Below, one piece after another: positions 13,601-60,548 of a stretch of DNA of 64,000 nt (the stretch's first letter is position 1; every line of letters begins with the position of its first letter). The translations under genes and the position numbers were made by a program. The notes beneath the pieces were generated by a model. That model was not told the origin of the DNA. It did no database searches and worked only from the letters and a program-made list of their open reading frames with translations. Source of the DNA: Leptogorgia sarmentosa (lineage: Eukaryota); the NCBI GenBank assembly GCA_964658305.1, contig OZ210885.1, positions 9,486,001 to 9,550,000 on the forward strand. Direction: 5' to 3'.

Positions 13601-16600
13601 CTACCGATGACATCATTGACATTCTAAATATTATTTTGTTTCTAATATATTATAACTTCATGCAAGTGTTGTTAGCAACTGACCTCACCGAATTTTGTAC
13701 TTACATATACTGTATGCATTTGCTAGTTACTGCATTGATATTAAGAATTCTATGAAACTAAACTAGGGATCCAAGGATAGTGCAAAGTTTCTAAGGCCTA
13801 GGTCGAACGTCGAACCTTACATGCGCTGAACCTATAATGCAAATGAGCTCAAACAAAGAACTTAGCTCATTAACATTAGGTTCGGCACATGAAAAGTTCG
13901 ACGTTTCACCTAGGCCTTAGAGGACATTAAAATCATATTTTTCAAAAGAAAACTAAGGAAACATTGTTGACGTGATACGAGAAAATAATCACTATTTTAT
14001 TGTCAGGAAGCAACTGCAATCGCAGCAGCGCGCGTCTAAAGCAAATCAGATAAATCTCTGACCTCTGACCTTTTTGAAATTATATACACATCGTACAGAA
14101 CAAATGATCTTAAAAGAGTTAAATCACAATGTGACACGCTACTTCTGCGTCTTAATAAAATATCCAGTTTATTCACAGTATCAGCCAACGTTAAATTTAC
14201 TTTTGTATGCCTATATGTGGTTTAGTTCATTTAGTATCGAAAATTCTGTAAATCCCCGGTATTTTCGGGCAAACAAACAGCCCAAGCTTAGTGATGCCGT
14301 CGACCAGTGTTGTCGAGTCGGAGACAGCGAAAACAAACACGAAAGCTATAAATGCGAAAGCTCGCAAATATGTTGCAAATATCATCAACCAATTTAAAAT
14401 ATGTGACGAGTTCTACTGTGTTACACATCTTAGTTTGCCTGCAATGTCGGCCAACTAAATTTTTAATATAAATACGCACGGCGGCTGTTAACAGTACTAA
14501 ATTGTCCATGACAAATACAAGTTTTCTACTGATAATGATGATAAATTCAAATCTCTAGATTCATTACTGATATATAAAGAACATTTTAACTGCTTTATCA
14601 ACGCATTCAAACATGTTGGCCACATTATATTATCATCATACTGAATTACTGATTCACGGTCCTACTCTTAGCGTCCGCCATATTGTGTAATTTCATTCAG
14701 AAGTGCTGAGTTGCAATTTTTGCAAAAACTGAAATTCCGGAGGGGCGTCCGCCATTGTGTACTGTATTTCTGCGCTTCTTTGATCACATTTCACTTCTAA
14801 CAAACTTTCATATCAATGAGAACAACTGCAAATAATGATGAGCAACGATATATAACTGCAATCGAATCATTTTTGTTCAAATATTTCAAGGATATCAGTC
14901 AAATACCGAGTTTCGCATGTCAGGAGAATTTGGGACGCTCCCCCCGGAGTTTACACTATGAATGACTGAATGACTACATGACTACATGACTATGTGAATT
15001 TTCGCCACTCATCACAATACTGCTAAGTTTCTTTGAAACTTTGCACTAATAAAGCAGGGGGAATTCCCCCCCCCAAATAAAAAATCTTTAAAAATTTGGG
15101 GGGGAGCTCCCACCCAGCTCCCACCCAGCTCCCAAAACCAATGCCCCTGGTGTTGGAGAGAAAGAGTACTTTTCGTAAGTAAGACATTTTTCTAAAATGT
15201 ATTAACGATTATGCTGCACGAATCTGACGAAATGCTTCTGAATTTCACATATTCGCTACGAAGCACAAGTTGAATACATATAGTGAATTTTTAACTCACT
15301 CTGATGACTGCGTCGCTATTTAGAGTTGACTCCCACTCAAATATGGAACGTTACGTGAAACCCAAGAACTGAAACGATATGCATCAATCTGCTTCATAAA
15401 CGTTCTTGTATTAAAATGTGAAGCCAAGTTTGTTAGTAAGCATCGATGTAGCTAATGTGCAAAGTGGGGTATTAAAATGTGAAGCCAATTTTTTTAGTAA
15501 ATAGCGATGTACACAGTGGCGTAACTACTAGGGGCCCAACCTGGCCGGGGGCCCTGGGAAGAGGTTTCTTCAGGGCCGTGGCTAATGTGAAATTCAAATA
15601 ATTTTATTGAATCTGAAGATGCAAAAACGTTTGAAGTCAACGAAACGTTTGATATCATTCAGTAGCTGAAACAATTTTGTTGCCTTTAAAATTGTGCTTG
15701 GGTGTTGACAGTATATTAATTGTTGTATATTACAGTCGAACTTTTACTGTTGTCATTGTTTCTGCTTTATAGGAACTTATTTTAGTGTGCTTCTTTTTAC
15801 GGAACGTTTTTACCTTTTGGGTATAATTGAAGCAGAAGAGATGTTAAATAGCTATAATATGTTCAGTATGTTCGATAACAAATAGCAGAATTAAAATGCA
15901 TATCATACGCAGAATTCAGGAGAATATTTCGTAGAGTTAGCTTAATTAAGAGGTATAATTAAGAGGCCATCCACAACAGTTCAACCGAGGGCCGACACTG
16001 GAGATTTACGCCGCTGAATTTGCAACGTAAAACAAACATTTTGTGAACGTACTTTCAAGTATTTTTATTTGAAGAAAAAATAATTATTTTAATTTAATAA
16101 TAGTATTCCAATATTCAATTTGGTACCGGCGGGGTAACATATTTCCGAAAGTATGATCATTTGTGGAGTTATTTGACAAACATAATATGAGAAGGATTTA
16201 ATTTTTTCTCTAATGGCATCGTTGCTGGCGTTCCTTCAGAAGCAAAATCATATCTTTTATCGAAACTCGCGCACTTTAATACTAACTTTTAAGCAGAGCG
16301 GAAGTCGAGAAAACGTTTATGCAGATTTTCTTTTACCGATTCTGAACAACATTTTGATATACGTGTTTGACTTGTGTTTAAGATGCTTACCATTGTTTGT
16401 TCCAATAAACACTCGCTGATCATCTGCACTGAAATCCAGAGCAATAACTGCACTCTCCACTTGGAACACAAAAAGCTGTTCATAATTATCCATTCTCCAA
16501 AGGATTGTACTTTTGTCAAACGCCCCTGACGCCAGTATTGCTTCACTTTGTGACACAGCCAAACAGTTAACTATCCTAGAATGTCCCAGTAGTTGTTGAA

Positions 16601-19600
16601 CTTCTCTACCTGTTTATAAAATAAGATAGCACGTACATAAAAGGGTGTAATGGATCATTTTCACTCATATGGTTACTACACTGGGAGTATTGTTCAAAAC
16701 ATTGCGGCGATAAAATAAATGATTGAGACAAGTAACTACATTAACTAAGCCATCAGCTACACTCGGCTTTACTGCTTACAACGCTAACTTTCATTTTTAC
16801 TATTACGTTCCTATAGCAACTTAAACAGCAATGTAAGCGATAGACAAACACCGAAACGATTTTTAATACTAAAAACAAAATAACTGTAATTTTGCGGAAT
16901 TTATTGTGGCGTGTTTCACAGGCGTGTGTTTTCATTCGTTACTTCTTGGGATTTCATAAAAGTATGCCCTCATCTTTGTTGTGCAAGTCCATTAAGATAT
17001 ATAGGTATCGAGCCAACTTGAACGGTTGGGTAAGACTCGCTACCGGTCCCATTTGGCTCGATAACTAAGGTGGTAGAGTAACGGTCAAGTAACCTACACA
17101 CGTACTCTGTTGCTGTTTTGATGTAACAAATTAGATATTCGTTTATGAAATCGTAAATTTCACCAACCACATACTATACAAATATGGGTTTGATTGTAAA
17201 ACAGCCACATGCACATATGGCTGTTTTCCAATGCCGAACAGTTTACTGAAATTTTATAATATATTTACTACTGTTTAGATAATATTTAGTGGCTGGTGTT
17301 GGTGGTAGAACAGAAAGTAGATAATCGGAAAACATGCATGAGGCCATAAACAGGAAATGTTCTATACAGTGAATACCAATGATTGCACAGGAATGTTGTC
17401 CTACTTGTATTTGTAATTACTGAACTTTCACATTTTAAAATTGGCAGATATCATTTATGCACACGATTTCTTAATAATTGTATGTTTTATTGTTTAGAAG
17501 AAATAATATGTCACTCTGTCCGAATTGATTTTTATAGTTTGATTAATATGTTGCAGACAAAAGCATTCCCTACAGCCATTTGTGAGATTTTTTTATTTTT
17601 TACCCAGTAAACATTGATCCTGTTCAAGAAATGACTGAATTAATTTTTATCCCAGCGTTAATCTGGATGAACATGTCTCTTCAAGTACTAATTCAAATTT
17701 CAAATATCATCATATGACGACGACTACCGTACATGATTGGCTAATTTTCTAATGAATTATCAATTACTTTGAGTGTAAACCTTTCTTGCCACACCCATAT
17801 CAACTGCATATTAACTATATTCTCATTTCAATGAATAACCAAGATCAAAGCTTTTGTTTAGCTAAAAAGGCATGTATGAATATGTTTAAAATATTGTCAT
17901 AATATATACGCTATAATTCAATTTGTCTGCTTCCAAAACTGAAACTTTTTTCAAAAACCGGGGCAGTGGGCTACAGCTCTAAAAAATTTGGATAATTATC
18001 CGTGTAACGAAATGACATTTGGATGGCGTAATATTATTAATACTTACTTATTTGCGCGAAATATTACGTGTGTATACAGTGGTTTATTTAACACTTATTT
18101 TACACTAGTTTTTTTTTTAATTTTATCAACTATGTAACTATCACGAGACTTTTCTGTTATTCTTAATAGAAAGACAACTACATTGTGGATAAGTTCAAAA
18201 ATGGTGTCATAGCAATTTTGTAGCAGAGGATTAGGGACCTTAAGATCTACAACGTGACCAACTCGACGACGACGAGCCTTCCGAACAAACAAATTTTTAT
18301 GCTGAACAAAAACCAAGCATAAATTGTGGTATCAACAGCTTTGTTGTTATCAACGTTAAGCTAAGCATTATAACGTCTTCAAAACAACGTAAGCTGATTA
18401 CAACGTGCACGTGAAAGCTGTAACTTCAAGTTGACTACACAGAAACGATCGCATTGCTTTAGCTGAACCTGTGTAGCTGTTTCTTGAAAAAATTCCAACA
18501 TCTATTTAAAGCATAAAAAGGTCAGCACTCATTTTCAAGCTGAAATTTAGACCCCGTCGTCGAGTTTGTGGCGTTGTAGATCTTAAGGTCCCTACTATCA
18601 ATTATTGGAGACGCCGCACGAAATACCGCGAGTTATCGTTGGCGAGCGGATCAATTATTTGCCGATTCCGAAAAGAGAAGCACGTAAGTAATCTGAGAAC
18701 AACCGATATATAACTGATGCAAAGCATAATAGGACGAGCCCTGAGGCCAGTGGGCGGTGAGCTCTAAGAGATCATAGCGCCGTAAAATTTCCGATGTAAT
18801 ATCATTGTTGTCAATTTCCTGGACGCTGATTGGCTAAAAAGCTTCAACAACTGTGCAAATTAATCTTTAATTTGCACAGTGTGCAAATTAAACTTAATTG
18901 CACGGTTTCGAGCCCGCGATACATTATAAAAACAAATAAATAAACGCCGCCAAAATTCTTGTTTTTTTGTCATTTATTGTCAACTTTGGACAAAAAAGGT
19001 TAGTCCGTTAGTGGACGTGTACTAGAATGATATTAATACGAAATTACACTTGTTCTCGAAGTATTAATGAAAAATTGCACTTGTGTTTGGCGAAATACCG
19101 TCTTTCGCCAAACACGCGTGCAATTTTTCGCAATTTTTCATTAATACTTCTCGAACCGTGTAATTTCCTATACTAATCAACTACTGTACATGTGACAGCA
19201 GGTAAGTTAAACATGTACTTTATTAAACTTTTTACTATATTTAGTTCATTATCAGCGCTAACAAAAAGAATTGAAGCTGAAGGCTAGTACAACGTTTCTT
19301 GACAAGGGGTGATTTTGTACTGCAAAGTTTTGTTAATTAATAACGCCACCCGAGTGGCTTTGTGAAATTGAGAGCGATTTCAAATTTGCTCAGTTTTTTA
19401 TACACGTATATCGCGCAGCCGCTCGACTTGCATAACTCAGAACTGATGATTCTTTCAAATGTGAGTGAGGATATGGTTGCACATATAATTACAATTACAA
19501 GCAGAGGCGGCATTGAATCTGTGTTTTATCCCTTTTCCGGACTGACGATCGGTCAAAAGAAAAAAAAAACTATTGAAAACCCCAAACCTTGCCATTAGTT

Positions 19601-22600
19601 TATCCATAGTACGTTACCACACGATTACCTACCTGTGTCAAGATCAAAGATTGTGATTGAACCATTCCTTAAACCACAAATTACAAGAGTAGCAGATGAA
19701 CTATTGGACGTCGCTAATGACCATACCCTTGAATCAAACGTTTTTCGAAAGATCTCAGGGCCTCCAAGATCTAAACATGAGAATTCCGGTATAAGACGGC
19801 AAGTCTCCGTGCATGTTGCACGGAGTTGCTCTAATAGCGTCTTTATCCCCGGATACTCTTCATAAGATAGCAATCTGCCTGGAAAACAAAAATACACAAC
19901 AGTATTAGCGCATATAACAAATTCAGAAAATTTAAAATAGCATTTAAAGATGAAGACAATTTTTGACAGGGAAAAATATTAAATTGAACAACTAAGGGGC
20001 CTATCTGATTATACTATATATATATATATATCTGTTTCTTGATTATTAACATAATAGGTTCTTAAAATTCATCATATGAGTTCTTTTCTAATTTCTAATG
20101 GAAGTTTTTGATTTTTTAACAAAATGTTCGTTCCCCTTCAGTGACTTTCATATAAAGGGGACATAAAGTAATATCAAAGTTTGAAAATGAGACAATGAAA
20201 AAAACGTTTTTGAAAGCTTTGCAATTGTTGAAATGATGTTGTATTCTGCTTAAGACAGTGAAAAGATGAGTAATTTATTTTGTGATAACGGAACGAGTAT
20301 TTATGAAATGATTTATTTCCGCATATGTTACACTGACAAGGGTTAATTCTGCTATTTACCAGCAGTTGTCATGCTTAGTTGCTATAGTTACAATTATTGA
20401 CATCAGAACCAACGATTAAAAGAGTATAGTATGCATGTGTTCTTGATCGAGTTAGCAATGTTCTTTACAACGGGAAGGATATGCAACATGTGCGGTTATG
20501 CATAAAGTCCATAAATATCGACTTCAGCTCTGGGAAGAATGATCCTTCTTTGGTCGTGTCTTGGATGTTTTCATTGTATATAGTCATTTTCGGGAAGTTG
20601 AGATCACAGACATATTTACGATCGTGCTATAGTTCTCTTATCTGATCATCGGTGGCTGACAGTTGATAGTTGAAGTACAGATGAAATATTGCATAACAGG
20701 TAGCCTTATAGCTTTTATATACTGCTGTTCTGATAGACTTAACTTTTGAGAAAATTCATCTGCCTTGATGGAGTCTATATAACTCAGGTATCCGTTCTAA
20801 AGCATTCTGTACAGGGGCGAAATTTAAGGGGGGGTTAGGGAGGGCGACTAACCCCCCCCCCCCAATGCTTAACTTTGCAGGGCAAAGAGGGAATTCGCAG
20901 GGCAAAACGAAATAAATATATATTCATTTGAAAAAAATTGACTATCAAGAGTTTTAAATTGCAATTAAAGTTTACATGACACGTTTTTGTGCTTGTAAGT
21001 CGACCAGCGGAAAACAGTAGCACCCCCTCCCCTCCCCCCCCCCTATATTTTCTACGGCTCCCTCCCCCCCCCCCCCCGCTTGTTGGAACAATTTAGGAAT
21101 ATTTTCTACGGTTCTGGTTATCTTGCAGGGTATTCCATTTACTTGCAGGGCATTTTTGCCCATAACCCCCCCATTGAGAAGGTGCAAGTTTCGCCCCTGA
21201 TTCTGTAATATATATTAATATATACAGTACTGTAGCTGCGACATTTTCGTCAGGATCAGTCTCAGATGAATGCTCAAAAATCATGGTTTTTGGCATTTGT
21301 GGTAATGGAAAATTAAATCTGCATACAGCCTGACCACTCTTCTTACACGTTTCAAAGTGTTTATGCCTTTGTAATTTTACGAAATCAGTTAAATCATCTG
21401 GGTCAGCTTTACATGAAACATAACTATCGATAAACTCAGCAACATCTTCATCACTATCTTTACCATACTTAGAAGCATTTTTTATCCAGAATAAGCCGTA
21501 GATATGTGGAGAACCTCTGCGGAAATTCAACGCGATAGAAGAAGTCAACAACTTCTACTAATTTCGTCGTTAGTAGAATCTTTATTGTCTATAAGACGAC
21601 CAAGAATATTTTAGTCAAATGAATCCACTGCATGTGTTTGAACAGCTAAAAATGAACAGAACCACATTACGCAATGATAAACTTGCACTTGAATTTGCCT
21701 GATCTGTACTTTTTTAGTTTGTAAAAAATGTTTGGCACAGACTGCGCGATTCTTCTATCTTTGCTTCGCAGTTCCCATTTACACATTGTGCTATACTGTT
21801 TTCAGCTTGATGTTTTCCACAATTGATGGGGGAAAAAACAGAAATTCATAATCTTTGTCTGTAAATATACCAAGTGGTCTATTCCTTCTCCTGGTGCAAA
21901 ACTTATTCTGTTACCATCTTGGGTAATGCCGGTTTCTTGTAGTAATGTATCCATAAGACCTGATGACCGTTCAGTCACTGCACACCACTCATCATCTGTA
22001 TCATTATCAATCAAGCCTTTATTTGCATTTGTCTCAACTACTTCTTGACTGTGAGCGTTCAGATTTTTTGAAGTCTCCATTCCATCCATGAATAAATTCT
22101 GACCACTTCTCTTCATTATTATCCACTTGATTTGATACATAATTGCCCATTACTTGCATTCCGTCGTTTGTAAAGATGTCACTGGTACGAACTAAGTATT
22201 GAGCTCCTTCTGCAGCTTTACTAATAGCATTCTGAAATTGATAGTGGTGTTCGTACCAAGGGATCGTTTTAATTGAAAATTTGAAATTGTTTGCGATTCA
22301 TCAATTGGTCTTTGTAAAACGCTTATAGTAGAATTTACATCATCAGGTACATTGCCTACATTCCCATGAATACTTAATTGGCCTCCTCGAACTAAATTGG
22401 GAAGTTCGCGTAATTGCATAAAAGGTATTCTTGAAGAGGTTGGAATTTTGTCTCCGCTGGTTACATATTCGCTGGCGCGGGTCATCATTTATTCGATTTT
22501 CATCTCTTGTGCCAACGTGTTCGGTTTTTGTCACGGCAAATATACCTTTTTTGTGCAAATTATTTGTCGAAACGTAGATTCTTTTGAAGCTCAGGGAGAA

Positions 22601-37600: not shown

Positions 37601-40600
37601 TTTCATATATAAATTTTTCATCATTTCAGATAAGTTAACAATTTGCATAGGTTCTCGATTACAGAAGGGTCGCTGCCAAGTGAAGCGAGTGGCGACAACA
37701 CGTTGGCTATCTCCTTGCCGTTTTCCTCGATTACAGAAGGCTCGCTGGCAAGGGGAAGCGAGTGGCGATAACACGTTGGTTATCTCTTCATCTTTTACTT
37801 TTAAAATCAGCCCTCTGACGAGTCAAGAGGTTTTCAGAAATGTCGCAAGGTTTGCACTTCATTTTCTTCGATCGTATACGAACAACTCCTTGTGTGTTGG
37901 CAAGAACTCATATGACGTTGTGCAACAGCCACATTGATTCATATCGATCAGCCAGCTAATTATTTTCAATACACGCAACGCGTTGTGCACGTGTTCTGGC
38001 TGTTTTATAATGATCTTTGGCATCTTACTCAACTGAGTGTATTTCCATATTTATTGAGCCAATCACCTTGAATTACCCAAAGCATGCTTTACACGTGCGA
38101 TACGAGGTACTGCGTCATGCGCAGACGCACGTAATGTGACGATTACATTTGCTGTAATTACAGCGTTTAAATTTTGTGGCCTTGTGGTAGTCAAACATTG
38201 TTAACCAACTTCACTGATTGACGGCCCCACTCTAAGCGTTCGCCATGTTGTGTAGAAATTTTAATGCCCCGAATGAATGCTTTTGCATAAATTGAAATTC
38301 CGGAGGGACTTTCCGGCATTGTGTACTCTAACTTGTGGGGCTCTTAGGTCACATTAGTGACATTACTCATCTAGCTTACTTTCCTATTCATTAGAGTAAT
38401 TGCAAACAATGCTGAACAACGATTTATAGCTACAATTGCATAATTTTTGTACATGGGAACATTTTGGGAAGAACACGCCCTCCCCCCAAGTTTACACTAT
38501 GAATGAATGACTGATGTGAATTTTCGCCACTCATCAAAATAATGCAAAATTTCTTCGAAACTTTGCGCTAAATAGTGAGGCAACTTAAATAAATCATAGA
38601 AGAATGAGATAAATTAAAGTTCATTATTTGAATTACCTAGGAGTTGAGGACAGATTGAATCTGGCTTTTCATTGATGACTTCGGCAGAGTACATTAACGA
38701 GGATTTGAGAAGTTGGATTTCCTTCGATTCTGTGTCCACAAAACGAAAATCTGATATTACAGAGAATACGTTGACGTGCTTCACTTTTTGTTTGAGCCAG
38801 TGTAGATCAAACAGCAGCTGAAGTAGTTCACCATGTCGTCCCGAAGAATAAATGTGATAGGGTAGGTACTTGAAATAATAGTCTCTTTGGCAGGTAGTTG
38901 AATTATCATTCCATTCACCATCCACGCACAGGCCACGAAGTGTCTTTACGAACTTATCCTGAACATCATTTAGTGTACCCATGTCTTGAAGTTTTGTCTG
39001 GGCAAAATCCAAAAGCAAGTCGTGTACACGATAGCTTCTCTTTCCGTGGAGTTCAGGCCCTGAAATTGATCGAAATGTTAGGAAATTTGTAATGAGACGG
39101 ACAATTTTTCAAATCGCCGTTGAGTAGCTATGGAAGAAATTGTGCTATCAGGTTTTCGTAAATACGAAATGGCTTAGTCACAATAAGAATAATTACTGGC
39201 TATAGTGAGCCAAGAATAATGCAATATCTGTAAAAAGGCACATAGACTTAAGGTAGTCCTAATTCTAATTCCTAAAAAGCAAAGAATGTTTTTTAATTCA
39301 CATGATTCGCCTTATTATTACAAAACATCAATAAAGAAATTACAATAGACACTAGATGAAAATAGATGGTAGGGCTAACCCACAAACTCCAATAACGGGA
39401 TCCTCCAATACGTTATGTTCAGAACTAGTTAATACATTTACTAACAACATGAACTGGCTTTGATTAATATTAAGCCATGATCAAACGAGATGCAAATCAT
39501 CGCAAGTTTTAACTTCTGGGCCATGGAAACGAGGTGGCAATGATTTGAAAAATGTTGGATAAGCAGGCAATGGAGTCAAATTGTTTAAAAGACACATGCA
39601 AAACATACTCTTTGCATGGATGATACAAGAAAACCATTCAGAGTTATTAACGAATTATTCGCCTTAGATAACATTCTATCTTACGCCTTCTCCTTATATT
39701 TCTGTTAATGAAGTCTTAATGAGAGCATTCATATCATTCAAAAGAATTCTTGACGGTTGTACTAGATGTCTATAGTTGGATGCAAGTATACTCACATTCG
39801 CTTTGCTTCACATGCAAAATCGACTTGGAGCAATGAAAATACGCGGTTAGCAGAAATTTTTTTTGGGATCACTTTGCTCGGGAGGTACTGGGTCGAGAAT
39901 ATTATATGGCAATTCTGACTCTAAACAGAAAATATTGTCTTTTCTTATTTTTGTTTTTCTAATCCAGGTCCAAACAGTAATTCTGACCCTAATAACAAAA
40001 TGCTGAGAAAAAGAGCTTGAAAAAAACAAACAAAATGACAAAAAGCCAACACGCGAGATTCGAATTTGCAGGTTCGCTACTGGCGAGCCGGGACCACAAC
40101 CTCTGAGCCAACTATTTTATATGAATAGATTTTGCAATACAATAAAATTTATAAAGTACGCGCGGTTACTAAGTATCCCAAAGAAAGTGATCCCAAAATA
40201 AATTTCTGCACGCGGTTAAGACACGCAAACGTTGTTCGGTTTAGTTTTCCCGTCAATCCAGGATGAAATCTCGATCCACTTTGCAACCTGTATTACTGGT
40301 TCACTGAATGTTGTAAATGTTCGTGACTAATGACAATACTTCAAAGTGAACTTCGCACTAAATATAAAAATTTTTCGGTGCAAAACTGAATTTTAACAAT
40401 TTTTCATGCAAAACTGTTAAAATATAAAACTATATTTAACAATTATACCATGAGCTCGAGTCGTATATGAGCTGATAGCCGACGAGTTGGCTATCAGCCA
40501 TATACGACGAGAGCGAATGGTATAATTGTTTTATTATATAGACAAAAGGCGAACATTATAAATTTTATTAAAATCATTCATTTGAAGGAAACGCTCAGCC

Positions 40601-43600
40601 ATTTTCAGCCATTTTGTTTTAAGCTCACTTGAGTGAGATCATTAATTCGTCCTACTCACTATATATGAAGTAATAGCTAGTGAGTAGCTCAGCCAATCAG
40701 ATTACAGAATATCTCATATATAGTGCTTGTCTATGTAATAAATATATATATACCTTTTAAGATCAGCGACTTTCTCTCGAGCACAGCAAGTATATCTTTG
40801 TGTTTCTGAGGTTTGCGCGAAGTTTTTCCACTCTGGTTCTGTATCGAACACCACAGCAGCTCGAGTACATCTGACGGTATATCTGTATCCTCTGGAAATA
40901 TAGCCAAATATAGAAACATCTCGCGTACACTTTCGTCTAGGCGTTGATAGCTCACATCAATGACTGCTAAGAGGTTATCATAAGGATAATCGACTTTGGG
41001 AAATAATATACGAATTCTCTCCAGGTCAGCATTTTTAAGATCATCTAAAACATCCTCCCAGTCTTGTTCCGCACGAGTGTCCGTTAAATTTGAACCCACC
41101 AGTGACACAGCCAGCGGTAAACCTCGACACTGCTCTAACAGGTCTGCAATAATTCGCCGTAAGTTTGGCGTTAACTGTTCGTCTGGACTTATCCCGGCGC
41201 TCCGATACAAGAGCCCTCGGGATTTATCTTGTGGCATAATAACAAGTTCGTACTTGGTAATTCCCGAGCCGCAGAGAACAGTAGCATCTCTAGTTGTTAT
41301 TAATAATTGGCATTTGCCAGATAAGCAATTGAATACAGCAGCGTCGTCCACCTTCCAAACATCATCAACAACAACCAAACAATCTTTATCAATCTAAAAA
41401 TGAGTTGAAAACTAGCTCAGAAACCGTATCTGTTAACTGCATTCAAAGGTTGGTAAAATTTACCACTCTTACTAGCCAAGGCATTCAAAGGCTCGCTTGC
41501 AATTTTTTAGTGGCATTTTCTGGCCTTTCTGATATACGAGGCACATGTTGATTTATGACGAATGTTCTGATTTTATTATTTCTGAATTCCGCAACTGGTT
41601 TAGTCTTTCACCTCAATAATAAAACTCGCACTAGAAATCGCTGCAAAAATTGCAAGTGTAAAAGAGTCCCAGCTGCCATCATCTCACCACCAATGCATGA
41701 GATGAATGAGGTTTTTAACGAACTGAGAAAGTAGAGGTACTATTTATCATTTATAGACCCGGGGGCTACATATAATCGTCGAAATATTTCATGAAGACCT
41801 GATGGCTTTAGCCCAAGGGAAATATCATCACTGCATGAAGGAAATATTTTGACACATCAGTCGTATGCAAATATATATTGCTTTCGTTTAACAAGAATGC
41901 ACGAGTTAAGAATTGTGCTTTATTTACAAATACTTACACGAACTGGCTGTACAACGCACGAGAAATTTTCAATACTGAACAAGGCGAAGCCGGGTTAAAA
42001 TGCTAAATTTATTTTAAAAATTAAAGACAAGTAATAAAGCTTACCGCCCTGGGTAAGTGGTCGTGCGAAAGAAAAGACTTGGAAGAATTGCCACTATTCT
42101 ATATTTAACGTCCATCTAACATCAGACTTCTACATTTAACGTCGCTTTAATTTACGTTTACCAACGCTGTACCGGATATATTTTTCTGTATTCGTGCAAC
42201 TTGGCTATTCGAGCTACATCCCATTAAAAATCGTCCCTATCTTGAAAATAGCCCTATCACATTTTCTCACAAACATCAAATATAGCACAGCATACATACC
42301 GTGTATTTTCTTAACCAAGATTGCGCTGCAACAATATCACTGAACGACACATCTCCACCAAGGACTCTGACGAGGGTGTTAATCAGTTTCAAGCGATCAG
42401 GTGTTTGACCAATGTCAAGCCAGACAGCTTGACGAGATTTTGAGACTTCCCAGGCAACAGCTTGGGCTAACACCGTCTTACCGAGGCCTCCCATTCCACG
42501 GATACCAACGTCGCCACCATGACGTCCAACAACACCCACTTTATTTCCCTGCTTGAGTAACTCCAATATCTCGGTTACTTCTGATGGCCTTTCCACCATG
42601 TGAGCAGGTAGATTGCGTAATCCATACGGAACTAGAAAATCGAATAAAATACAGATGATAATTTTGAAATCACTCTGCTGCACGCTTCAAATAATTGTGT
42701 ATACCAGAATGCATAGTTGTAAAATTTAAACTTTGAACATTAATTTCGTTCAATAGTTTACGTCGCTCTGGCATTAAAATCTCTTGCTACAGTTTGCAGT
42801 GTATGGTTACTGAAGTGAGTCTGAACTTTATTTAAACTTTCGCAACAAAAGCAATTTGTAGTGTGGTTTACAGTTATTGATGAGAAGTTTCTACGTTGTG
42901 GCTGTTCCTATTTGGTCGTTTATGCTTGCGCGCGCAGAAGTTGCTAATTGGTACAGTCTTTCCTCGCCACCTGTACTGCAGGGTGAGAGAACTTGGAGTA
43001 CGTTATGATTTTGAAGTGCTGTCCACTGCGTGCAGTGGTGATATAAAGATTTATGAAATATCGTTTTAAAAAATCCGTGTTTCTATAACACTATAGCTAG
43101 AACAAGGGCGTCAATCCTGGGGGGGATGGGGGGACGCGTCCCCCCCCACTTTTTGAAGTGGGGGGGGGGACGAATATCTAATTATCCCCCCACTTTTTAC
43201 CACATTAAAAAAAATTTTTTTTTGGTAATCTTAAAACCCCATGCCTGTATGCTTATATATCGTGAATTGTGAAGTACAATCAACAATCTGAGATCAGAAG
43301 AAAACTATTCGGAGCCTTCGAATAGTTCTGCGAATGAAATCCTCATTGGAAAAGCAATAAACGGACCTCAGCCACGTACACACGTTCAAATTTGCTTTTG
43401 TTTTTACCGACCACTGTATGTACAATGATCAAATCATTTCATTTGCGATTCAAATCTTTTTTTTTATTTATTAAAAATAATACCTGTTCAAATAATACAC
43501 ATGCATTCGACATCGACAAAAAATTCTCATAATTTAGGCAAGAAATTCAGCGGAATAACTTTAGTAACGCTGAAAATGGCATTTGTGCATGAGGTTTCAA

Positions 43601-46600
43601 ATTTCAAAATTTTTCTGGGAAGCATGCCCCCAGACCCTTCTAGAAAGGGGCACGCTTCATTACTATTTTACAACAGACAAATTTTCGCCCCCCCCCCATA
43701 AGCGTACGAGGCGGGGGGACAAGGGGGGCAACCCCCAAAAAATTGAAATCGGGAAATTCGGGCACCGATTTTCAGCATAATTCGGGCAAAAATTTGAGGA
43801 ATAAGGTAATGTCAACAATCCTCCAGTCGTTCACCTGAACGACCGTGCCAAGAAAGTGGAGTTAGGACTCTGAAATCGCCGTTTCCGGCAATCCAGAGGT
43901 TGTAAAAGTTCAAAAATTTCTCGCTCGGCACCAACCATGGTGGCGCCTCGTGACATTTGGTACCCTCAATTTCGGGCAAACATGTTTCTGCCCCCCCCCT
44001 GAAAAAATGTAGCCCTTACGCTTATGGTCCCCCCCACTTTTTGGGACGGATTGACGCCCTTGCTATAGAAACACGAGGATTTTCACGCGGGTTGCGTGGA
44101 TTGCGCGGGAAATTAAAAAACCAAACGAATCTTTGAATGAATGCAATTAAAATCAATAAATTTATCTTTTTTATTGTTTTTAAAAGGCTATTTAATAAAG
44201 GAAATAGAAAACACTTTTTCCGTGTTCCTATAAGTTATAGAAACACTTGTGTAAGTTTGGGAGAAACTCGAAATTGTGTGGAAACACTCGCACTTCGTGC
44301 TCGAGTTCCCACGGAATTTCTCGTTTCTCCCAAACTTCCACGCGTGTTTCTATAACTCTATAGAAACACGAAAAATGTTTTCTATTTCTTAAATTGCATT
44401 CGAAACCATGCTAATATGTACCTACATATACAAATAAGAATTAGACATTCTAGAGTATGATTCGGCTTCTGGACAGCCGAAGTTTCATTGTATACAGGGT
44501 GACTAAAAAAAAAGGTAATCGAACTTCGGCATGCCATTGTGCGTTAATTACTGGGTATGAACGTAATTTTTGCATGGTCATAAAGATCAGGGTCTCAGCT
44601 GTTGAATGAAATGTTTTTTGTGTTATTATGAGCAAAGCAGAATGAATATGAGAGCGATTAAAATTGACGGTCGAAATTGCATATTTTCACCTCTGTGCCT
44701 AAGCATAACAAAAGAAAAATGCAATTAATCACGAATGTGTCATGGTAACAAAGATTATTAATAATTATGCATAATCAGGTCGTTTGTTGAAGGGAAGGTC
44801 GTCATCTTCGAGTCTCAGAAGGAGTTAATTTCGAATAAGTTTAGCCGCAATTCTCACGGGTGAGAATATGCGATTTCGACCAACGATTTTTAATAGACTC
44901 ATACGTGCTCTGTTTTACTCAAAATGGTACAAAAAACTTGTCGTTCAACAGCTAATAACTTGCTCTTTATGACCATATAAAAATTACGTTCATACACCCA
45001 GCAAATAGCGCTCAATGGCATGTCAAAGTTGGATTACATTTTTTGCGACACCCTGTATATCGCGCAGCGTCCATTCCAGTTAGTTGAAGCTTTCAAATCA
45101 TGCTATAGAATAAAGCTATAAACATCATTTACAGCATGGATTTTTAGAAAGTAGTTCAAACGAATAGTGACATCTCGGCAATCAGAGCCTCTAAAGTCAC
45201 AGAAGTGGCAACCAGCAAGCTGACCAGTCTCTTCATACAAGTCACATAATTTTGCCGACAGAACACTTTTCCCATCGCCGGGACCTCCATTTAGGATCAT
45301 AACTCTCGATTTCGTATCGTGAAGCCAATTTTCAAAGTCGTCAAAGAACCATTGTCTGGTTCCTTGAAATTTTCGAATAAGCTGGTCAATCTTTCCATTA
45401 AAGACAAATTTAGCTCATTTTCAGAAGATTTTATATTTTCTACCACAGTTCGCAACTTGACAACTTGGCTTTCAACATTGGCTATACTGAATCTCCTATT
45501 AATGAAGCATCTTAGGACATAAATCAAAAGAAGCATTCAAATACTATCAGCAACATTTAAGCATTCTTGTACCAATTGAGCTGCGTCAACTTTTCACGAG
45601 CGTTTTTTATTTGGTTGTGACCTACGCAGTTAATCCGCCCAACATTAAAATTCATTTTTAGTGATGATGAGTGCGACAGCGCGTACTGCACTGCCAATGC
45701 TTGCGGATTCCCACTAATTCTGGGAAGTGTTAGAAGACATATTGGATTCCTGTTGCCGTTTACTCTAACGAGATATTTTCCTACAAAAAATTCTTAGAAC
45801 GTTGAAGACCGGGAAGGTTCGTGGGGGACAAATTTCGAAAATTGAATGGCTGCCTGATACTCTGCAAATTTTTCCGCATTATATATTCTGCATAAATAGT
45901 TTCCCATCTTCCCTAGTTGATTGAAACACTACCTTTTTTCTCTGCAAAATCTGAATGCTCCGTCCACGGCTTTTTCTGTCGACATTCGATTTCATCTGTT
46001 TTCTCCGCCAGGCGTTTAAGCTCCATTGAATGATGTTCAAGTTTCTCAGCTGCAGACCTTTCAACCTCTTTAATTTTGCGAAGCAGTGTGGATTGTATGT
46101 TATCGAGTTTCTCCTTCACTGGATTTATCTGAATAGATTAAATTGATTTAGTAATATTCAATTTACGGGCTGAAACAAATTTGAAATCACTCTCAACTTC
46201 ACAAAGCGGCTTTAGGTGTGTGATGTAATAATAGTTATATAATCTAACGTTATATCGTATAGGTAATTGTATGGTTTCGAGTGCAATTTGGAAAAACATG
46301 TAGGAGTAAGTTTTTCAAAGACATTCAAAATTGCACGAGTCCAAAGGACGAGTGCTATTTGAAGTCTTTGAAAAGCTCATGAGTGTATGTTTTTTCCAAA
46401 TTGCATGAGAATTTAAATAGAATATACTTGTCTCGCTTTGTTCTGCCGCTAATATACGGAGATGTTTTGCTTGTCCACCGAGCACTTGCTTGGACGAAGA
46501 GAAATCTCTGTCTTGTATTATAAAAAGATTGTCAACATCGACTGCTGTTAATATCACTTTTAACCTGTCTGGTTCATATTCATGTCGTTTCTTTTTAAAT

Positions 46601-49289
46601 TCACAGTTTTCGTTCAGCATAAAAACAATCGAGCAAAATATATAATCTAACACCTGCTGCGGAATATTTTGTACTCGCGCTGTACTTCCTTTTCAATGCA
46701 ACACTTTATCCGCACAATCAACCACAGGAATAGATATCTTTCCTGGTATTTTCATTTTTCAAACTATTTTTAAGCCCCTCTATCATTTGTCTGTTGCCAA
46801 AAAAATCTACCCAAAGAGGCAGCTATTTTTTCATCCTCGAATAATTTCATATTTTGTTATTGTTCGCCAGAAATGGCTTAATCTGATTGGATAGCTTTGT
46901 AATCTCAGCCAATCATAGGACATTAACATGAATTTACTTTTTTGGCACTGTATTTCCTTAAAATTGCACTGCTCTCAGCTGCCACTCTGTGGACTTGGTT
47001 TGTTTGAACAGCGACGCACGCCCGTGTGAGCTTTATCAATATTTTCCTGACTTTAATGGTTGGGATTTTAGAGAAAGGGAAATTGCTTCGCCGATCTTTT
47101 ACGGGCTACCCACATGCGTACCTATTTTTCCTCTCTTATAAATTGGCCCATTTTTCTCAAAATTTTCGAATTGCCATCGAATAATTTTTACCTCACTATG
47201 AGGACGAAATATTGCAATGCTTAGTCGACACAGATGTAAAGTCGAATACGAGCTAAAATTTTTGTGACGACATTATACAGGGTGTCTCAAAAAAAAGGTA
47301 ATCCAACTTTGGCATGCCATTGTGCGTTAATTACTGGGTGTACGAACGTGATTTTTGCATGGTCATAAAGATCAAGGTCTTGGCAGTTGAATGACATATT
47401 TCTTGTACGATATGGAAGAAAATCAGGCAAATGCGAGCGTGTTGAAAAATCTCGGTGAAAAACGCATTCTTTCACCTCTGAGAATTGCAGCTAAACTTAT
47501 TCAAAATTAACTCACTCTGGGACTCGAAGATGACGACCTTCCCTTCAACAATCGACCTGATTATGCATAATTATTAATAATCCTGATAAAATCTTTGTTA
47601 CCATGACACATTCGTGATGAATTGCATTTTTCTTTTGTTATGCACTGCTTTAATTAGGCACAGAGGTGAAAGAATGCGTTTTTCACTGAGATTTTTCAAC
47701 ACGCTCGCATTTGCCTGATTTTCTTCCATATCGTACAAGAAATATGTCATTCAACTGCTAAGACCTTGATCTTTATGACCATGCAAAAATCACGTTCGTA
47801 CACCCAGTAATAAACGCACAATGGCATGCCAAAGTTCGATTACCTTTTTTTTGAGACACCCTGTACATAAGGTCTATTGAAATCTGATATGCAAGTTTCC
47901 TAGTCTGTAAACTTTTCAGAAATTTATAGTTCAACGTTGGAACCTCAATAGCAATTTTGCAAGGAAAAATAATTGTTATCTATCAAAATTTAGGTTTAAT
48001 GGGATGTCCCAGCCCCTTGGGCTAGTTTTTTCCCCCCTAAAAGAGTATTTATATTAGTATTTATCAGTAATTGATATGTAGTGTGTTTTATTTATCAGTA
48101 CACACTTCGTTCTAAGTATTCTATTGCAAACGTCTCCCCCAAAAAGTATGAACATGTTTGACTTGCAACGTTTAACGGGTAAAGCAAAACTCATAAAAAC
48201 AGCATTATCGAAAAAAAGCACAGATTGCGTTCCCACGCTGAAAATTTGCACTCGCTCGCATTTGAAACATGTCTTATATTAATTTGAACAGCGTCGTCCT
48301 ACTTATTCAACGACTGTTAAATGAAACATCAAAAGTTCCTCAAACCTTTGTGGCGTCCAAATCGTAGTTTTTGATACAACGGCAAAGTTCAGCTACACTT
48401 TCTGCAATTAGTTTTGCGTGACGACCATCAACAAGAATGTCTGGAAATAATGAAGAAAATTTATCTTGAGTATCACAAACACTATAAATCTATATGCGTT
48501 CAACGATTGATCGTATTCAGAATCGCATTGTATTGTATATATGGTAATAAATGAATAAAATTGGATAATAATAATAATAAATGAATAATAAGAGAAATTC
48601 TTTCAACACATGGGGGTTTTCTTACAGGAGATCAAAAATGATCTGCGCAAAACATATTTAAAGGCATGATGAAATTCCGGCAATAATGCTAATAATACAG
48701 TACCTGTTTTATTCCAGAAATCTAGGTCATCACAAATTATTTTTTCGTCAGCTGCTGGTAAATTTAATATTTTGACCAAAGATTCCATTGCTTGAAACGA
48801 GTCATTGAACATATGTAGTGTCCATTCAGAGATGTTACAATGAGCCCATGGGTTTCTGATGTCCGACCGGACTTTGTTTGCTTCAGCTGCAGCACCAGAA
48901 GATACAAAAGGAGCTGCCTTGCCGATAATAGTCAAAAGTGCTGACATATCCATGGTGCCATCAAATCCAGTGAAATGTGCCATAAAGTCCGTGACGAATA
49001 GTTTCGCCAACGAGACAGGATCTTTAACAGCATAATCATAAGCTGATTTAGTAGGCTTGTGGATAATGTTATTGTTAATGTTTTTATATTGTAGGTTATG
49101 GGTGGAAGGGGGTAATTTCTTCCTTCTGTATGCTGCGAAATCTTGCTTGTGAATTTCATCAGGTGGTTGGCATAAAGAATTATACCACTTCCCAAGTTCA
49201 GTGGCGACAACTTTCCTCAATGCAGGTGCAAGAACTTTGGTAAAGGCAATGCCAACTAAAACCCAATGTTGTTCTTCCTCTGATATCAT
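4458..49289 (-). CDS. 12-exon gene encoding HEPN-like domain + coiled coil + NB-ARC (APAF-1-like) + helical domain + WD40 repeats, about 1199 aa
   Basis: Exons 49289-48704, 48440-48346, 46128-45933, 42631-42300, 41393-40754, 39059-38637, 19878-19633, 16609-16391, 12281-12069, 8454-8184, 6890-6658, 4603-4458. All introns are GT-AG, phases match (1,0,1,0,1,1,1,1,1,2,1), total 3600 nt with no internal stop. Confidence 0.85.
6658..6890 (-). CDS. Exon 11: WD40
   Basis: ALTASGDGSIRVWNL...DHSNDVTGITV...VSASRDGTFRVWNL. Confidence 0.88.
8184..8454 (-). CDS. Exon 10: WD40
   Basis: MLVSGSYDGTIKIWDL...IISGDLKGCVRLW...YEGHSADI. Confidence 0.88.
9865..10277. mobile_element. hAT-type MITE
   Basis: CAGTGGCGTA...TATGCCCTTG; TSD TTTCAGAG/TTTCATAG (7 of 8 match). 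Confidence 0.7.
10872..12048. repeat. Nested palindromic interspersed repeats (TTATTATATGGC / GCCATATAATAA family)
   Basis: Internal hairpins such as ggacctcgccttcggctcggtcc. One copy interrupts another at gggaaa|gtattg. Confidence 0.6.
12069..12281 (-). CDS. Exon 9: WD40
   Basis: VVTSLCTTKDGQFIATVGSHLDKTIKLW...LVGHTRTVTCV. Confidence 0.88.
12883..13479 (+). pseudogene. Internally deleted hAT transposase remnant
   Basis: An N-terminal zinc-finger-like segment (ERWLSVFEGLKY...YYCTICQ) is fused directly to a hAT C-terminal-like segment (KIKLRTKMSQAFLNSLVRIRYNGP). A hAT-like end ...gcccctg lies at about 15149. Confidence 0.65.
13762..15048 (-). mobile_element. Non-autonomous Helentron-like element (HINE)
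   Basis: Subterminal inverted repeats TAGTGCAAAGTTTC (13778) / GAAACTTTGCACTA (15035-15048), terminal atcc-aa-ggat hairpin, tgac/tgaa microsatellite. 14720-15048 resembles 38280-38570. Confidence 0.7.
13794..13917. mobile_element. Small TA-flanked MITE
   Basis: TIR AGGCCTAGGTCGAACGTCGAAC / GTTCGACGTTTCACCTAGGCCT. Confidence 0.75.
15514..16016. mobile_element. hAT-type MITE (old)
   Basis: CAGTGGCGTAA...TTACGCCGCTG; TSD degenerate. Confidence 0.5.
16391..16609 (-). CDS. Exon 8: WD40
   Basis: LLGHSRIVNCLAVSQSEAILASGAFDKSTILW. Confidence 0.88.
18232..18594. mobile_element. MITE
   Basis: TIR TAGGGACCTTAAGATCTACAACG...CTCGACGACG with its inverse at the right end. Confidence 0.85.
18825..19175. 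repeat. Palindromic interspersed repeat; second copy at about 61035-61385
   Basis: Shared gattggctaaaaagcttcaacaactgtg and the hairpin tgcacttgtgtttggcgaaa...tttcgccaaacacgcgtgca. Confidence 0.75.
19633..19878 (-). CDS. Exon 7: end of helical domain and first WD40 repeat
   Basis: Joins exon 6 to give QLLGRLL across an 18.8-kb intron; VWSLATS...GLRNGSITIFDL. Confidence 0.85.
20812..21199. mobile_element. hAT-type MITE
   Basis: TIR CAGGGGCGAAA; perfect 8-bp TSD ATTCTGTA. Confidence 0.9.
23235..23555 (+). repeat. 31-bp subterminal tandem repeat, about 10 copies (MULE left end)
   Basis: CGGAATGAGAAAATGCGGAATCTTTAAAACC units. Confidence 0.95.
23994..25112 (+). CDS. Ser/Thr protein kinase inside the MULE (ORF runs to 25202; likely splice donor at 25112)
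   Basis: GERSFGEV, VVVKKL, FIKEV, HRDIKPANILV, LADFGES, GTLVYNSPE, CDVWSLG. Phase-0 donor CAG|GTAACT. Confidence 0.9.
25550..29276 (+). pseudogene. MULE transposase with SWIM zinc finger and C-terminal Cys/His finger, disrupted
   Basis: D1 GIDPTF, D2 GTDGE, CxxH RCFLHF, E TNNDPEAAN, SWIM CDRTC...KICEH, C-terminal KCYGC...HFHLNRTC. Introns 25995-26222 and 27290-27639. Apparent frameshifts near 25705, 26280 and 26600, and a stop at 28963. Confidence 0.85.
29535..31348. mobile_element. Non-autonomous PIF/Harbinger-type element inside the MULE
   Basis: TIR GGGCCGGTTGTACGAAAGGCGTTTAA; 3-bp TSD CTG. Confidence 0.85.
31483..31630 (-). repeat. Same 31-bp repeat inverted, about 4-5 copies (MULE right end)
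   Basis: ggttttaaagattccgcattttctcattccg units. Confidence 0.95.
32849..34303. mobile_element. Foldback element made of inverted 72-bp minisatellite arrays
   Basis: TIR GGGTATGGGTAAAATGCGGATACGGACGG; perfect 10-bp TSD ATTTCAAAAA (32839-32848, 34304-34313); array orientation flips near 33257. Confidence 0.92.
34865..36432. repeat. Tandem duplication of about 0.77-0.8 kb within the Helitron
   Basis: ORFs recur at +764 and +805; the first copy has a short internal deletion. Confidence 0.9.
38637..39059 (-). CDS. Exon 6: MHD-equivalent motif and APAF-1-like helical domain
   Basis: YRVHDLLLDFA...YYFKYLPYHI...LLFDLHWLKQKV...ICPQLLG. Confidence 0.9.
39850..40209. mobile_element. MULE-type MITE
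   Basis: TIR GCAGAAATTT..TTTGGGATCACTTT; perfect 9-bp TSD ACGCGGTTA. Confidence 0.9.
40754..41393 (-). CDS. Exon 5: NB-ARC Walker B, sensor motif, GLPL, winged helix
   Basis: CLVVVDDVW, LLITTRD, CRGLPLAVSL, SYQRL...LAIFPED...LELLW. Confidence 0.92.
42300..42631 (-). CDS. Exon 4: NB-ARC N-terminal part with Walker A
   Basis: LPAHMVERPSEV...VGIRGMGGLGKTVLAQAV...VWLDIGQ; canonical splice sites. Confidence 0.9.
43103..44062. mobile_element. hAT-type MITE with a nested MITE at 43697-44026
   Basis: Outer TIR CAAGGGCGTCAATCC; inner TIR CATAAGCGTA; TSDs imperfect. Confidence 0.8.
44190..44394. repeat. Palindromic short repeat; partial copy at about 27390-27536 in the MULE intron
   Basis: gaaatagaaaaca...tttgggagaaactcgaaatt...aatttctcgtttctcccaaa...tgttttctatttc. 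Confidence 0.8.
44495..45055. mobile_element. Tc1/mariner-type MITE (copy 1)
   Basis: TA-flanked CAGGGTG...CACCCTG with long TIRs. Confidence 0.85.
45170..45481 (-). pseudogene. Frameshifted, truncated NACHT NTPase exon
   Basis: AKFVFNGKIDQLIRKFQGTRQWFFDDFENWLHDTKSRVMILNGGPGDGKSVLSAKLC...LAGCHFCDF. Frameshift near 45415; similarity ends before Walker B. Confidence 0.8.
45933..46128 (-). CDS. Exon 3: coiled coil
   Basis: INPVKEKLDNIQSTLLRKIKEVERSAAEKLEHHSMELKRLAEK; acceptor ttcag, donor AG|gtagt. Confidence 0.75.
47278..47863. mobile_element. Tc1/mariner-type MITE (copy 2, inverted relative to copy 1)
   Basis: TA|CAGGGTGTCTCAAAAAAAAGGTAATC...|TA; TIRs of about 200 bp. Confidence 0.9.
48346..48440 (-). 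CDS. Exon 2: short helical linker (not in the ORF track)
   Basis: tttccag|AC...AAG|gtttga encodes DILVDGRHAKLIAESVAELCRCIKNYDLDATK and converts phase 1 to phase 0 exactly as needed. Confidence 0.7.
48704..49289 (-). CDS. Exon 1: DZIP3-type HEPN-like N-terminal domain
   Basis: MISEEEQHWVLVGIAFTKVLAPALRKVV...DMSALLTII...KVRSDIRNPWAHCNISEW. The Rx4H motif is at 48840-48857. Donor AG|GTACTG. An acceptor just upstream (exon start 49296) implies a further 5' exon. Confidence 0.8.
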
Positions 49290-57165: not shown

Positions 57166-57915
57166 GGCTATGTGTGAAACAAGGAACGGGGAACCTGGAA
57201 AGCGGATCGTAAAGGGAATACATGAATCTGTAAAACCCGGAACCTGTAAAACCAGGAACCTGTAAAAGCAGGACCTGTAAAAGCCGGTGACTGTAAAAGA
57301 CGGAATCTTAAAACAAGGAATCTCTGAAGCCAGGAATCTGTAAAACCAGGAATCTGTAAAACTAGGAATGAGTAAAATCTAGAACCTAAAAAAAACGGGA
57401 ATCTATAAAACCAGGAATCTGTAAAACCAGGAATCTGTAAAACCAGGCATCTATAAAATCAGGAATCAATAAAACCAGGAGTCTGTAAAATCAGGAATCT
57501 GTAAAATCAGGAATCTGCAAAATCAGGAATCTGTAAAATCAGGAATCTATAAAATCAGGAGTCTGCAAAACCAGGAATCTATAAAATCAGGAATCTTTAA
57601 AATCAGGAATCGGTAAACCAGGAATCGGTAAAACCAGAAATCTATAAAATCAGGAATCTGTAAAATCAGGAATCTGTAAAACCAGAAATCTATAAAACCA
57701 GAAATCTATAAAACCAGAAATCTATAAAACCAGGAATCTGTAAAACCAGAAATCTATAAAACCAGGAATCTGTAAAACCAGAAATCTATTAAACCAGGAA
57801 TCTGTAAAATCAGGAATCTGTAAAATCAGTATTCTATAAAATCAGGAATCTGTAAATTTAGGAATCAAAACCAGGAATCTGTAAAATCAGGAGTCCTTTA
57901 AAAGCCGGCATCTGT
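57166..57915 (+). mobile_element. Left end of a second foldback/MULE-like element with a 16-bp tandem array
   Basis: Starts GGCTATGTGTGAAACAAGGAACGGG, similar to the 23178 TIR. About 40 copies of GTAAAACCAGGAATCT follow. No right end seen in the window. Confidence 0.65.
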
Positions 57916-60333: not shown

Positions 60334-60548
60334 GTTGACATTAATATTGGCTTGCACTTCGATATGAATAAATCTTCAATCTGCCCGTAAACTCGAACAT
60401 AATATTTTAGTACTTAACAGAAGGACTAATCGTATTCAAGTATTGGTGGATATATTTAACACGAATGGCAGTATATGCATCTTAACCCTTTGGGTTGCAT
60501 TTTTTCCCATGAATTTGAAAGTTTTACAGTTTATAGGTTCGGTAAATT

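Follow-up and report, generated by a model that had tools for sequence, protein, structure and literature searches.

A window of 64,000 nucleotides from Leptogorgia sarmentosa (contig OZ210885.1 of assembly GCA_964658305.1, positions 9,486,001 to 9,550,000; all coordinates below count from its first letter) contains a minus-strand gene, here called the host gene, whose reading frame has the domain order HEPN-like/coiled-coil/NB-ARC/WD40, and, between exons 3 and 4 of this gene, a short piece of a NACHT-type NTPase gene. It is highly probable that this piece, at 45500-45172, is a fragment of a DZIP3-HEPN-NACHT-WD gene, that it is spliced out of the host transcript, and that it was likely copied in after the host gene had likely exchanged a DED head for its HEPN-like head; the order of events is read from trees and sequence identities. 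An earlier sequence-only reading had taken the piece for a dead exon, possibly left by a swap of the NTPase module. It would rather be ordinary debris of a large gene family, with no record of such a swap.

The open reading frame (ORF) at 45414-45106 on the minus strand, reading AKFVFNGKIDQLIRKFQGTRQWFF...VMILNGGPGDGKS...AGCHFCDF, matches the Pfam family NPHP3_N with 50.6 bits (cut-off 24.8, E 3.2e-13). A same-strand fragment of a different STAND family is thus indeed present after exon 3, and the spacing proposed for it, about 450 bp, agrees with the end of exon 3 at 45933 (phase 1), which lies 452 bases before 45481. A protein search with this ORF yielded 142 proteins, the best 120 of which were used in all homolog counts; all 120 match the window at the piece only, and all carry NPHP3_N. 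These listed members, anthozoan DZIP3-like HEPN-NACHT-WD40 genes, are 60-85% identical to the piece and share with it the linker, the Walker A motif (GGPGDGKS in the piece, aligned to GPGVGKS of the relatives) and the HFCDF motif. Unlike them, the piece, of about 330 bases, keeps only about 110 of the approximately 1350-1400 codons, has no HEPN domain, Walker B or repeats, and is frameshifted. The similarity ceases before Walker B, alignments to the listed homologs ending at 45157-45190 in 116 cases and at 45112 in four, and when 77 long members were used to build a profile of the 450 residues that follow, this profile found nothing further in the window (best E 0.8). Hence the piece has neither the Walker B motif, nor the rest of the NTPase, nor the open frame of a working NPHP3_N-type NACHT gene. 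The frameshifted state and the cut before Walker B had been recognized correctly; of the extent suggested before, 45170..45481, the end near 45172 is retained, and the start is moved to about 45500.

Compared with its relatives, the piece has three indels, +2 at 45483-4, -7 at 45418 and -3 at 45363, the first two being frameshifts and the third a lost codon. The window was compared with eight sequencing runs aligned as contigs, none of them recorded as RNA, the best run sharing 0.42 of the query words. The single in-frame stop of the piece, at 45417-45415, is replaced by a sense codon in runs X1, X4, X5, X8 and X10; an X1 contig, from another sample, spans 45385-45533 without gaps, and the break at 45172 is spanned by contigs in X4, X5, X8 and X13. 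Since contigs of other samples cross both the lesions and the break, an assembly error as the source of the frameshift or the truncation is ruled out. The piece is real and dead.

Both ends of the piece are breaks in the middle of a gene. Some contigs match the window from 45501 onward without the NACHT piece (X13 has loose ends at 45528, and X5 has one before 45500), hence 45500/45501 is a junction with a neighboring, likely dispersed, repeat. At the piece edges, neither a target-site duplication nor a poly(A) tail is evident by eye. Capture by break repair, or along with the neighboring repeat, would be possible routes of entry. An inverted-repeat element resembling a miniature inverted-repeat transposable element (MITE), 44491-45059, was considered as the cause of the truncation and rejected, as it lies 110 bases past the break and is missing in other alleles, being skipped by contigs in all four runs of one alignment set (joint 44492/45056). 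A second MITE-like copy, 80% identical to the first one, is found at 47274-47865.

In order to decide whether the piece could be a former exon of the host gene, we considered the family that it comes from. Of the 120 listed members, 101 have more than 180 residues upstream of the region matching the piece, and 96 of these 101 heads show the RNxx[YF][GA]H motif; the Pfam domain HEPN_DZIP3 is present in all three heads scanned. The host head, in turn, is not detected by a profile of the 101 donor-family heads (E 1.3), and its best blastp match among the 120 listed homologs has E 0.32, that is, the donor family does not have the head encoded by exons 1-3. A metagenome scan with protein P0015 as the query found no locus, and a scan with alignment A2 found four family loci (L001-L004), the status of these contigs as DNA resting on the collection label. 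L001 and L002, which apparently encode the same protein, each run as one uninterrupted ORF (1349 and 1389 codons, respectively) from HEPN to the C-terminus; in L003 HEPN and NACHT share a frame that a single stop interrupts between them; L004 is frameshifted in its own HEPN part. L004 is 72% identical to the window at the DNA level over 45499-45180, with gaps +2, -7 and -3, and has an open frame through the AG proposed earlier as the acceptor; upstream of 45499 the identity falls to the background (5-9 out of 25), and none is sustained beyond approximately 45170. The contig of a closer paralog, seen in X5 and X10, has the same +2 and -7 gaps, and also the -3 gap in X5; it aligns up to 45500 and then diverges.

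Accordingly, homology to the donor family starts at 45499-45500, 19 bases upstream of the proposed acceptor AG, and the 5' edge of the piece is not at an acceptor native to that family. The AG has 10 pyrimidines in the 22 bases upstream of it, compared to 11-16 at ten modelled acceptors, the fewest of the 13 sites compared. A stronger AG at 45511-2 (17 out of 22 pyrimidines) was also tried as the donor acceptor and rejected, as the paralog matches stop at 45500 and 45501-45530 goes with the repeat. As judged from these comparisons, the piece does not derive from an exon of the host gene. Anthozoans have many DZIP3-HEPN-NACHT genes, and therefore stray fragments of them would be expected; we are confident that the piece is debris of this kind.

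The splicing data agree with this interpretation. Runs X8, X10, X13 and X14 were treated as RNA, X8, X13 and X14 due to spliced joints or exon-to-exon loose ends, and X10 because it belongs to the study that produced X8 and has a contig that stops at the exon 3 donor. Both joints of X8 (48440/48704 and 42631/45933) have CT..AC ends, and the joint of exons 3 and 4 is present in two contigs, confirming the earlier prediction that exon 3 is spliced past the piece to the NB-ARC exon; loose ends in X14 read exon 2 and exon 4, and a loose end in X13 reads exon 2. Use of the NACHT piece as an exon is not observed: among the joints listed for the eight runs (a part of the total in one set, with 120 further joints, and five joints in the other set, with 18 further loose ends) none is at 45481 or 45510. 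The depth over the piece in X8, about 7 versus 330-570 over exon bins, and the lack of cover in X14 were not used as evidence.

The relative age of the piece points in the same direction. The piece is 85% identical to P0015 over 82 residues (P0015 itself appears damaged) and differs from paralog contigs by 16 substitutions in 137 bases and 16 in 185 bases. The junction of the head and the tail (head/xPYGLR) is common to the host gene, P0001 (head 71%, tail 64% identical) and P0135 (59% and 67%, respectively), and is shared by P0140 from Paramuricea by the coiled coil only (tail 62%). If a dead sequence had the age of this junction, its decay should exceed, rather than fall short of, that of the surrounding coding sequence under selection, and thus the piece is likely younger than the junction, that is, a later insertion.

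The host head could not be assigned to a Pfam family: exon 1 has no match at E 1, HEPN_DZIP3 (PF18738) included. Nevertheless, it is well supported as HEPN-like. Arg145, Asn146 and His150, forming the R-[NDH]-x-x-x-H motif, are invariant in all 15 aligned heads, and RNxW[AG]H is found in 112 of the 150 best representatives of the head family. A profile-profile comparison matches the head to DZIP3-type heads (probability 90.7, E 1.2e-6), in an alignment that also spans the NTPases. The AlphaFold model of the head has a predicted local distance difference test score (pLDDT) of 69.7; it has no Foldseek match in PDB at E 0.001, and VIA-align places the C-terminal domain of Swt1 (Z 8.2, root-mean-square deviation (rmsd) 3.3, 119 aligned) and the HEPN toxin 7ae2 (Z 7.1, rmsd 4.0, 99 aligned) among other helical bundles in its ranking. 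Atlas look-alikes (score 0.97, with a recognition value below the threshold of the tool) are molluscan clusters with HEPN_DZIP3 in 11-38% of members or DUF4559 in 11-37%. The RNase activity of the head is a prediction.

The sequence-only reading had derived the head from a HEPN-NACHT gene, and this was not borne out. In the nearest full-length relatives the head is followed by NB-ARC: among 14 long homologs, similar to the host gene over exons 1-3, 12 have a tail of the NB-ARC/AAA_16-beta-helix type (Dendronephthya and Mytilus are among the named ones), one has NB-ARC-WD40, one a shorter NB-ARC-DUF7779, and none NACHT. The broader head family comprises 387 representatives at E 0.001. Of the best 150, 13 match the NB-ARC-TPR profile (10 of them strongly), two match the NACHT profile, and most others are short, with no tail visible. 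Pfam domains in 44 longer representatives include nSTAND3 (17), NPHP3_N, NACHT and Roc-COR (two each), and, once each, AIG1, a kinase with Ribonuc_2-5A, Death, PARP14 RRM and DZIP3 HEPN. The Pfam-less head family was thus observed (P0254-P0403) on nSTAND3-ankyrin, NACHT-LRR, Roc-COR, AIG1 GTPase, RNase L-like kinase, Death and PARP14-type proteins.

The closest named protein matches of the window are from Dendronephthya gigantea, Paramuricea clavata and Xenia, the nearest named tails being 'apoptotic protease-activating factor 1-like' of Dendronephthya and Xenia. We compared the top 17 animal-type matches and P0001; a part of these have a readable head, the others lacking a complete N-terminus. 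Their alignments to the window start at the exon 4 border, and the readable heads differ: HEPN-like coiled-coil in P0001, P0135 and, partly, P0140, DED in P0136, P0137, P0139 and P0142, and paired Death domains in P0143 and P0145. In the tail tree (23 rows, LG+G4), rooted on four cyanobacterial-type NB-ARC proteins, three of them named Anabaena, and restricted to these and the animal-type sequences, with plant, other bacterial and vertebrate ones left out, the host gene, P0135, P0001, P0140 and the headless P0138 group together (100/98), and starred branches place this clade within the DED- and Death-headed tails. By this tree, the HEPN-NB-ARC-WD40 architecture is shared with other genes but derived, not ancestral.

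As the HEPN-headed tails are nested among DED- and Death-headed ones, and the closest relatives of the head sit on NB-ARC-TPR proteins, a DED head was likely the one replaced. The host gene is thus likely a chimera, in which a mobile HEPN-like head replaced a DED head on an APAF1-like tail, with no NACHT stage needed. The earlier proposal of a chimera stands in this part, the closest tails carrying DED or Death N-termini, with the switch at the border of exons 3 and 4; its HEPN-NACHT origin of the head does not. The separate head and tail searches that it had suggested gave tail paralogs with other N-termini, as predicted, and head paralogs without a NACHT continuation. It had also named an unrelated insertion into an ancestral HEPN-NB-ARC-WD40 gene as the opposite outcome; the insertion is likely, and the architecture is derived.

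Several observations weigh against our interpretation. Contigs drop rare isoforms, and the unused state of the piece refers to the contig joints listed. For 21 linker-like codons, the frame of exon 3 continues from the AG at 45482-3, although such a match would have a one-in-three chance. HEPN fold scores of the head model are middling (Z 7-8), and acyl-CoA dehydrogenase bundles tie with the HEPN matches (Z 8.5). The list of close head homologs is not exhaustive, P0135 having been missed. Some heads of the family do occur next to NACHT (NPHP3_N in P0363 and P0374, NACHT in P0266 and P0285), and in P0256 the head, 56% identical, is followed by a DZIP3 HEPN. In the head tree (15 rows), three APAF-tailed heads are found among TPR-tailed heads, but this nesting is not starred, and approximately unbiased (AU) tests do not reject the alternatives (p 0.36 and 0.22, the latter with TPR-tailed octocoral heads kept apart). 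The tail tree was built without a mixture model and has a long-branch warning at the root. Finally, the starred sister of the host gene is P0001 in the head tree and P0135, whose head is on a long branch, in the tail tree; a later head exchange or re-graft among paralogs may have occurred, which loosens the timing argument.

Part of this evidence would fit a history in which exons 1-3 were once spliced to a NACHT gene at 45481, the latter was cut short, and its place was taken by an NB-ARC-WD40 tail, the piece remaining as a dead exon. The same strand, the position 452 bases past exon 3, the phase of the AG, distant heads on NACHT-type proteins in four of the 150 representatives, the room that the disagreement of the two trees leaves for a late re-graft, and cnidarian fusions of CXorf38-type and DZIP3-type HEPN to NACHT, described in a part of PMC3710099, all are in its favor. 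However, the donor family has another head, of the DZIP3 type and in one ORF with NACHT, and no intron at this site, where the proposed acceptor is inside the coding frame; the homology starts upstream of the AG, which has the weakest pyrimidine tract of the 13 acceptors; no long close head homolog out of 14 is of the NACHT type, and the NPHP3_N proteins P0363 and P0374 share only about 35% identity with the piece; none of the close paralog contigs joins exon 3; and the decay of the piece is too slight for a sequence as old as the junction. We consider this history very improbable.

Even with the piece as an unrelated insertion, HEPN-NB-ARC-WD40 could be the old state of the APAF1-like clade, with DED and Death heads as newcomers. 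The thin sampling, with ten tails of known head, and the root on long branches leave some space for this order; four successive outgroup branches, most of them starred, are DED- or Death-headed, and DED-headed NB-ARC proteins have been reported in Nematostella in a part of PMC2246300, which makes it very improbable. The least probable of the alternatives considered is that the piece functions as RNA in the 3' untranslated region of a head-only isoform, tuning the NACHT family or the head-only product. It derives from a joint 45779/45932 (CT..AC), by which exon 3 would be spliced to an acceptor at 45780, and from X13 contigs over 45546-45775 and 45106-45226. This joint is seen in a single contig of a single run, X13, with variant letters suggesting another copy or allele, X10 crosses 45780 unspliced, and no contig connects the joint with the piece; the 74-residue tail of the predicted product has no Pfam match. 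Three different 9-base insertions at 46042 in exon 3, observed among variants in runs X5, X10 and X13, suggest several copies or alleles of the head.

A late insertion into an already chimeric gene thus being preferred, the host gene can be compared with known systems. Similar to APAF1/CED-4-like NB-ARC-WD40 proteins, it has NB-ARC with Walker A and Walker B, the APAF-1 helical domain and WD40 repeats. Unlike them, it has an enzyme-like HEPN head with a coiled coil instead of a death-fold adaptor: exon 1 has no death-fold match in Pfam at E 1, and the same library did detect the DED and Death heads of the relatives. According to a part of PMC2246300, the CARD of APAF1 is replaced by CARD pairs, Death, DED or TIR in known proteins, HEPN being unlisted there. 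Exons 1-3 align with the HEPN-like-NB-ARC-TPR-beta-helix-MYND proteins P0002-P0013 up to the border of exons 3 and 4, at 34-54% over the whole head, but past this border the NTPase subfamily and the sensor differ. The coral HEPN-NB-ARC-TPR heads in the consulted portion of PMC10236652 are of the DZIP3 type, to which the host head has no Pfam match. With the HEPN superfamily (CXorf38/Swt1-like, DZIP3; PMC3710099, in part) it shares the invariant R-N-x-x-x-H, and, unlike the members named there, it is covered by no Pfam family.

Exchange of N-terminal domains in invertebrate NOD-like receptors has been described (PMC3879445, in part), HEPN-NACHT proteins number 83 in Dendronephthya gigantea (PMC8260672), coral NACHT and NB-ARC proteins are reported to carry DZIP3-like HEPN heads (PMC10236652), and cnidarian HEPN fusions to NACHT and Death are known as well (PMC3710099). 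Additional file 17 of PMC10236652 contains HEPN/NACHT/WD40 rows; NB-ARC with WD40 is absent from the first 30 of its 323 HEPN rows, and the remaining rows may bear on novelty. A HEPN domain on an APAF1-like tail was not found in our literature search, which excluded subscription papers. Thus, effector swapping on APAF1-like proteins and NOD-like receptors is already known, and a HEPN head on an APAF1-like tail is a new combination in the literature searched. What makes the host gene valuable is that the exchange of an effector on an APAF1-like protein can be traced to a single intron, and that both likely source families persist. The head family, in turn, would be an unannotated mobile effector on many signalling scaffolds.

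APAF1-type proteins oligomerise into the apoptosome. By analogy, in the host protein the WD40 part would sense a ligand and release the NB-ARC switch, the released protein would oligomerise, and paired HEPN heads would cut RNA instead of recruiting a caspase. Catalysis by HEPN requires two juxtaposed motifs (bioRxiv 10.64898/2026.05.28.728550, in part), and apoptosome-type oligomerisation could place such motifs side by side. The swap itself could have occurred by recombination in the phase-1 intron before exon 4. We offer only tentatively, as a possibility rather than an expectation, the whole scheme of an octocoral 'RNase apoptosome', in which a caspase-recruiting DED head gave way to a mobile HEPN at one phase-1 intron, RNA would be cleaved upon oligomerisation, heads would still be exchanged, and a head-only form would exist. 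Should the head prove to be an active RNase, a scaffold of the apoptosome type would bring about the destruction of RNA in an animal, which would link apoptosis scaffolds with RNase L-like defence.

The model of the host gene (Table 1) has 11 exons from 49289 to 6658, 1141 stop-free codons and GT-AG ends at all 10 introns. Exons without a Pfam match were located through homologs (tblastn), and the 3' end of the model is provisional. A duplication, 1-2446 and 6365-8810, with a spacing of 6364 bases and one mismatch in about 2445, includes exons 10 and 11 and extends beyond the start of the window; it is either a recent tandem duplication or an assembly artefact. A possible twelfth WD40-like exon behind a CAATAG acceptor, at about 4603-4440 on the minus strand, seemingly has a frame shift or an early stop, and homolog tails have no tblastn match to it. 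The host gene may be shorter than its relatives of 1500-1700 residues.

Table 1. Coordinates of the host gene exons, the NACHT piece and adjacent elements in the window.
Feature	Coordinates	Strand	Description
Exon 1	48704..49289	-	HEPN-like domain, RNPWAH motif; ends in phase 1; joint 48440/48704 in X8
Exon 2	48346..48440	-	Linker, start of coiled coil; X8 joint; X13 and X14 loose ends at 46130 read exon 2
Exon 3	45933..46128	-	Predicted coiled coil; ends in phase 1; joint 42631/45933 in X8; X14 loose end at 45933 reads exon 4
Alternative acceptor 45780	45557..45780	-	Splicing of exon 3 to this site would add 74 in-frame codons before a stop; predicted head-only product
Likely dispersed repeat	45501..45800 (right edge approximate)	.	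Adjoins the 5' edge of the piece; contigs match the repeat without the piece
NACHT piece	45172..45500	-	Walker A and the end of the coiled-coil linker from a DZIP3-HEPN-NACHT (NPHP3_N type)-WD gene; pseudogene fragment cut before Walker B
AG proposed earlier as acceptor	45482..45483	-	Inside the donor coding frame (ORF of L004 runs through)
MITE-like inverted-repeat element	44491..45059	.	Arms of about 200 bases, TA flanks; downstream of the piece
Exon 4	42300..42631	-	Start of NB-ARC, Walker A GMGGLGKT; Pfam NB-ARC E 9e-6
Exon 5	40754..41393	-	NB-ARC, Walker B (LVVVDDVW), GLPLA; Pfam NB-ARC E 5.6e-18
Exon 6	38637..39059	-	VHDLL motif, APAF-1 helical domain; Pfam APAF1_C E 3.3e-11
Exon 7	19633..19878	-	Entry to WD40 region; tblastn with P0001, P0135 and others
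Exon 8	16391..16609	-	WD40; Pfam WD40 E 9.6e-9
Exon 9	12069..12281	-	WD40-like; homolog matches
Exon 10	8184..8424	-	WD40-like; second copy at 2060-1820
Exon 11	6658..6890	-	WD40-like; second copy at 526-294

Other features of the window include mobile elements and repeats. In intron 6, 23988-28962 on the plus strand contains an ORF for a protein kinase (Pfam Pkinase E 6e-33) and, after it, long Pfam-less ORFs, transposase-like by eye, possibly a kinase-carrying transposon. Degraded ORFs at 21096-22488 and 34860-37320, both on the minus strand, look Helitron-like by eye, with a weak DUF6570 match (E 0.012) and internal duplications with spacings of 764 and 805. Tandem arrays were observed at 32897-34322 (72-base unit, one part inverted), at 23167-23600 and 31448-31654 (31-base units, mutually inverted and 8 kb apart), and at 57200-57950 (16-base unit). 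Six tRNA genes (Cys, Ser, Glu, Ser, Asn, Pro) are located at 60548-63205.

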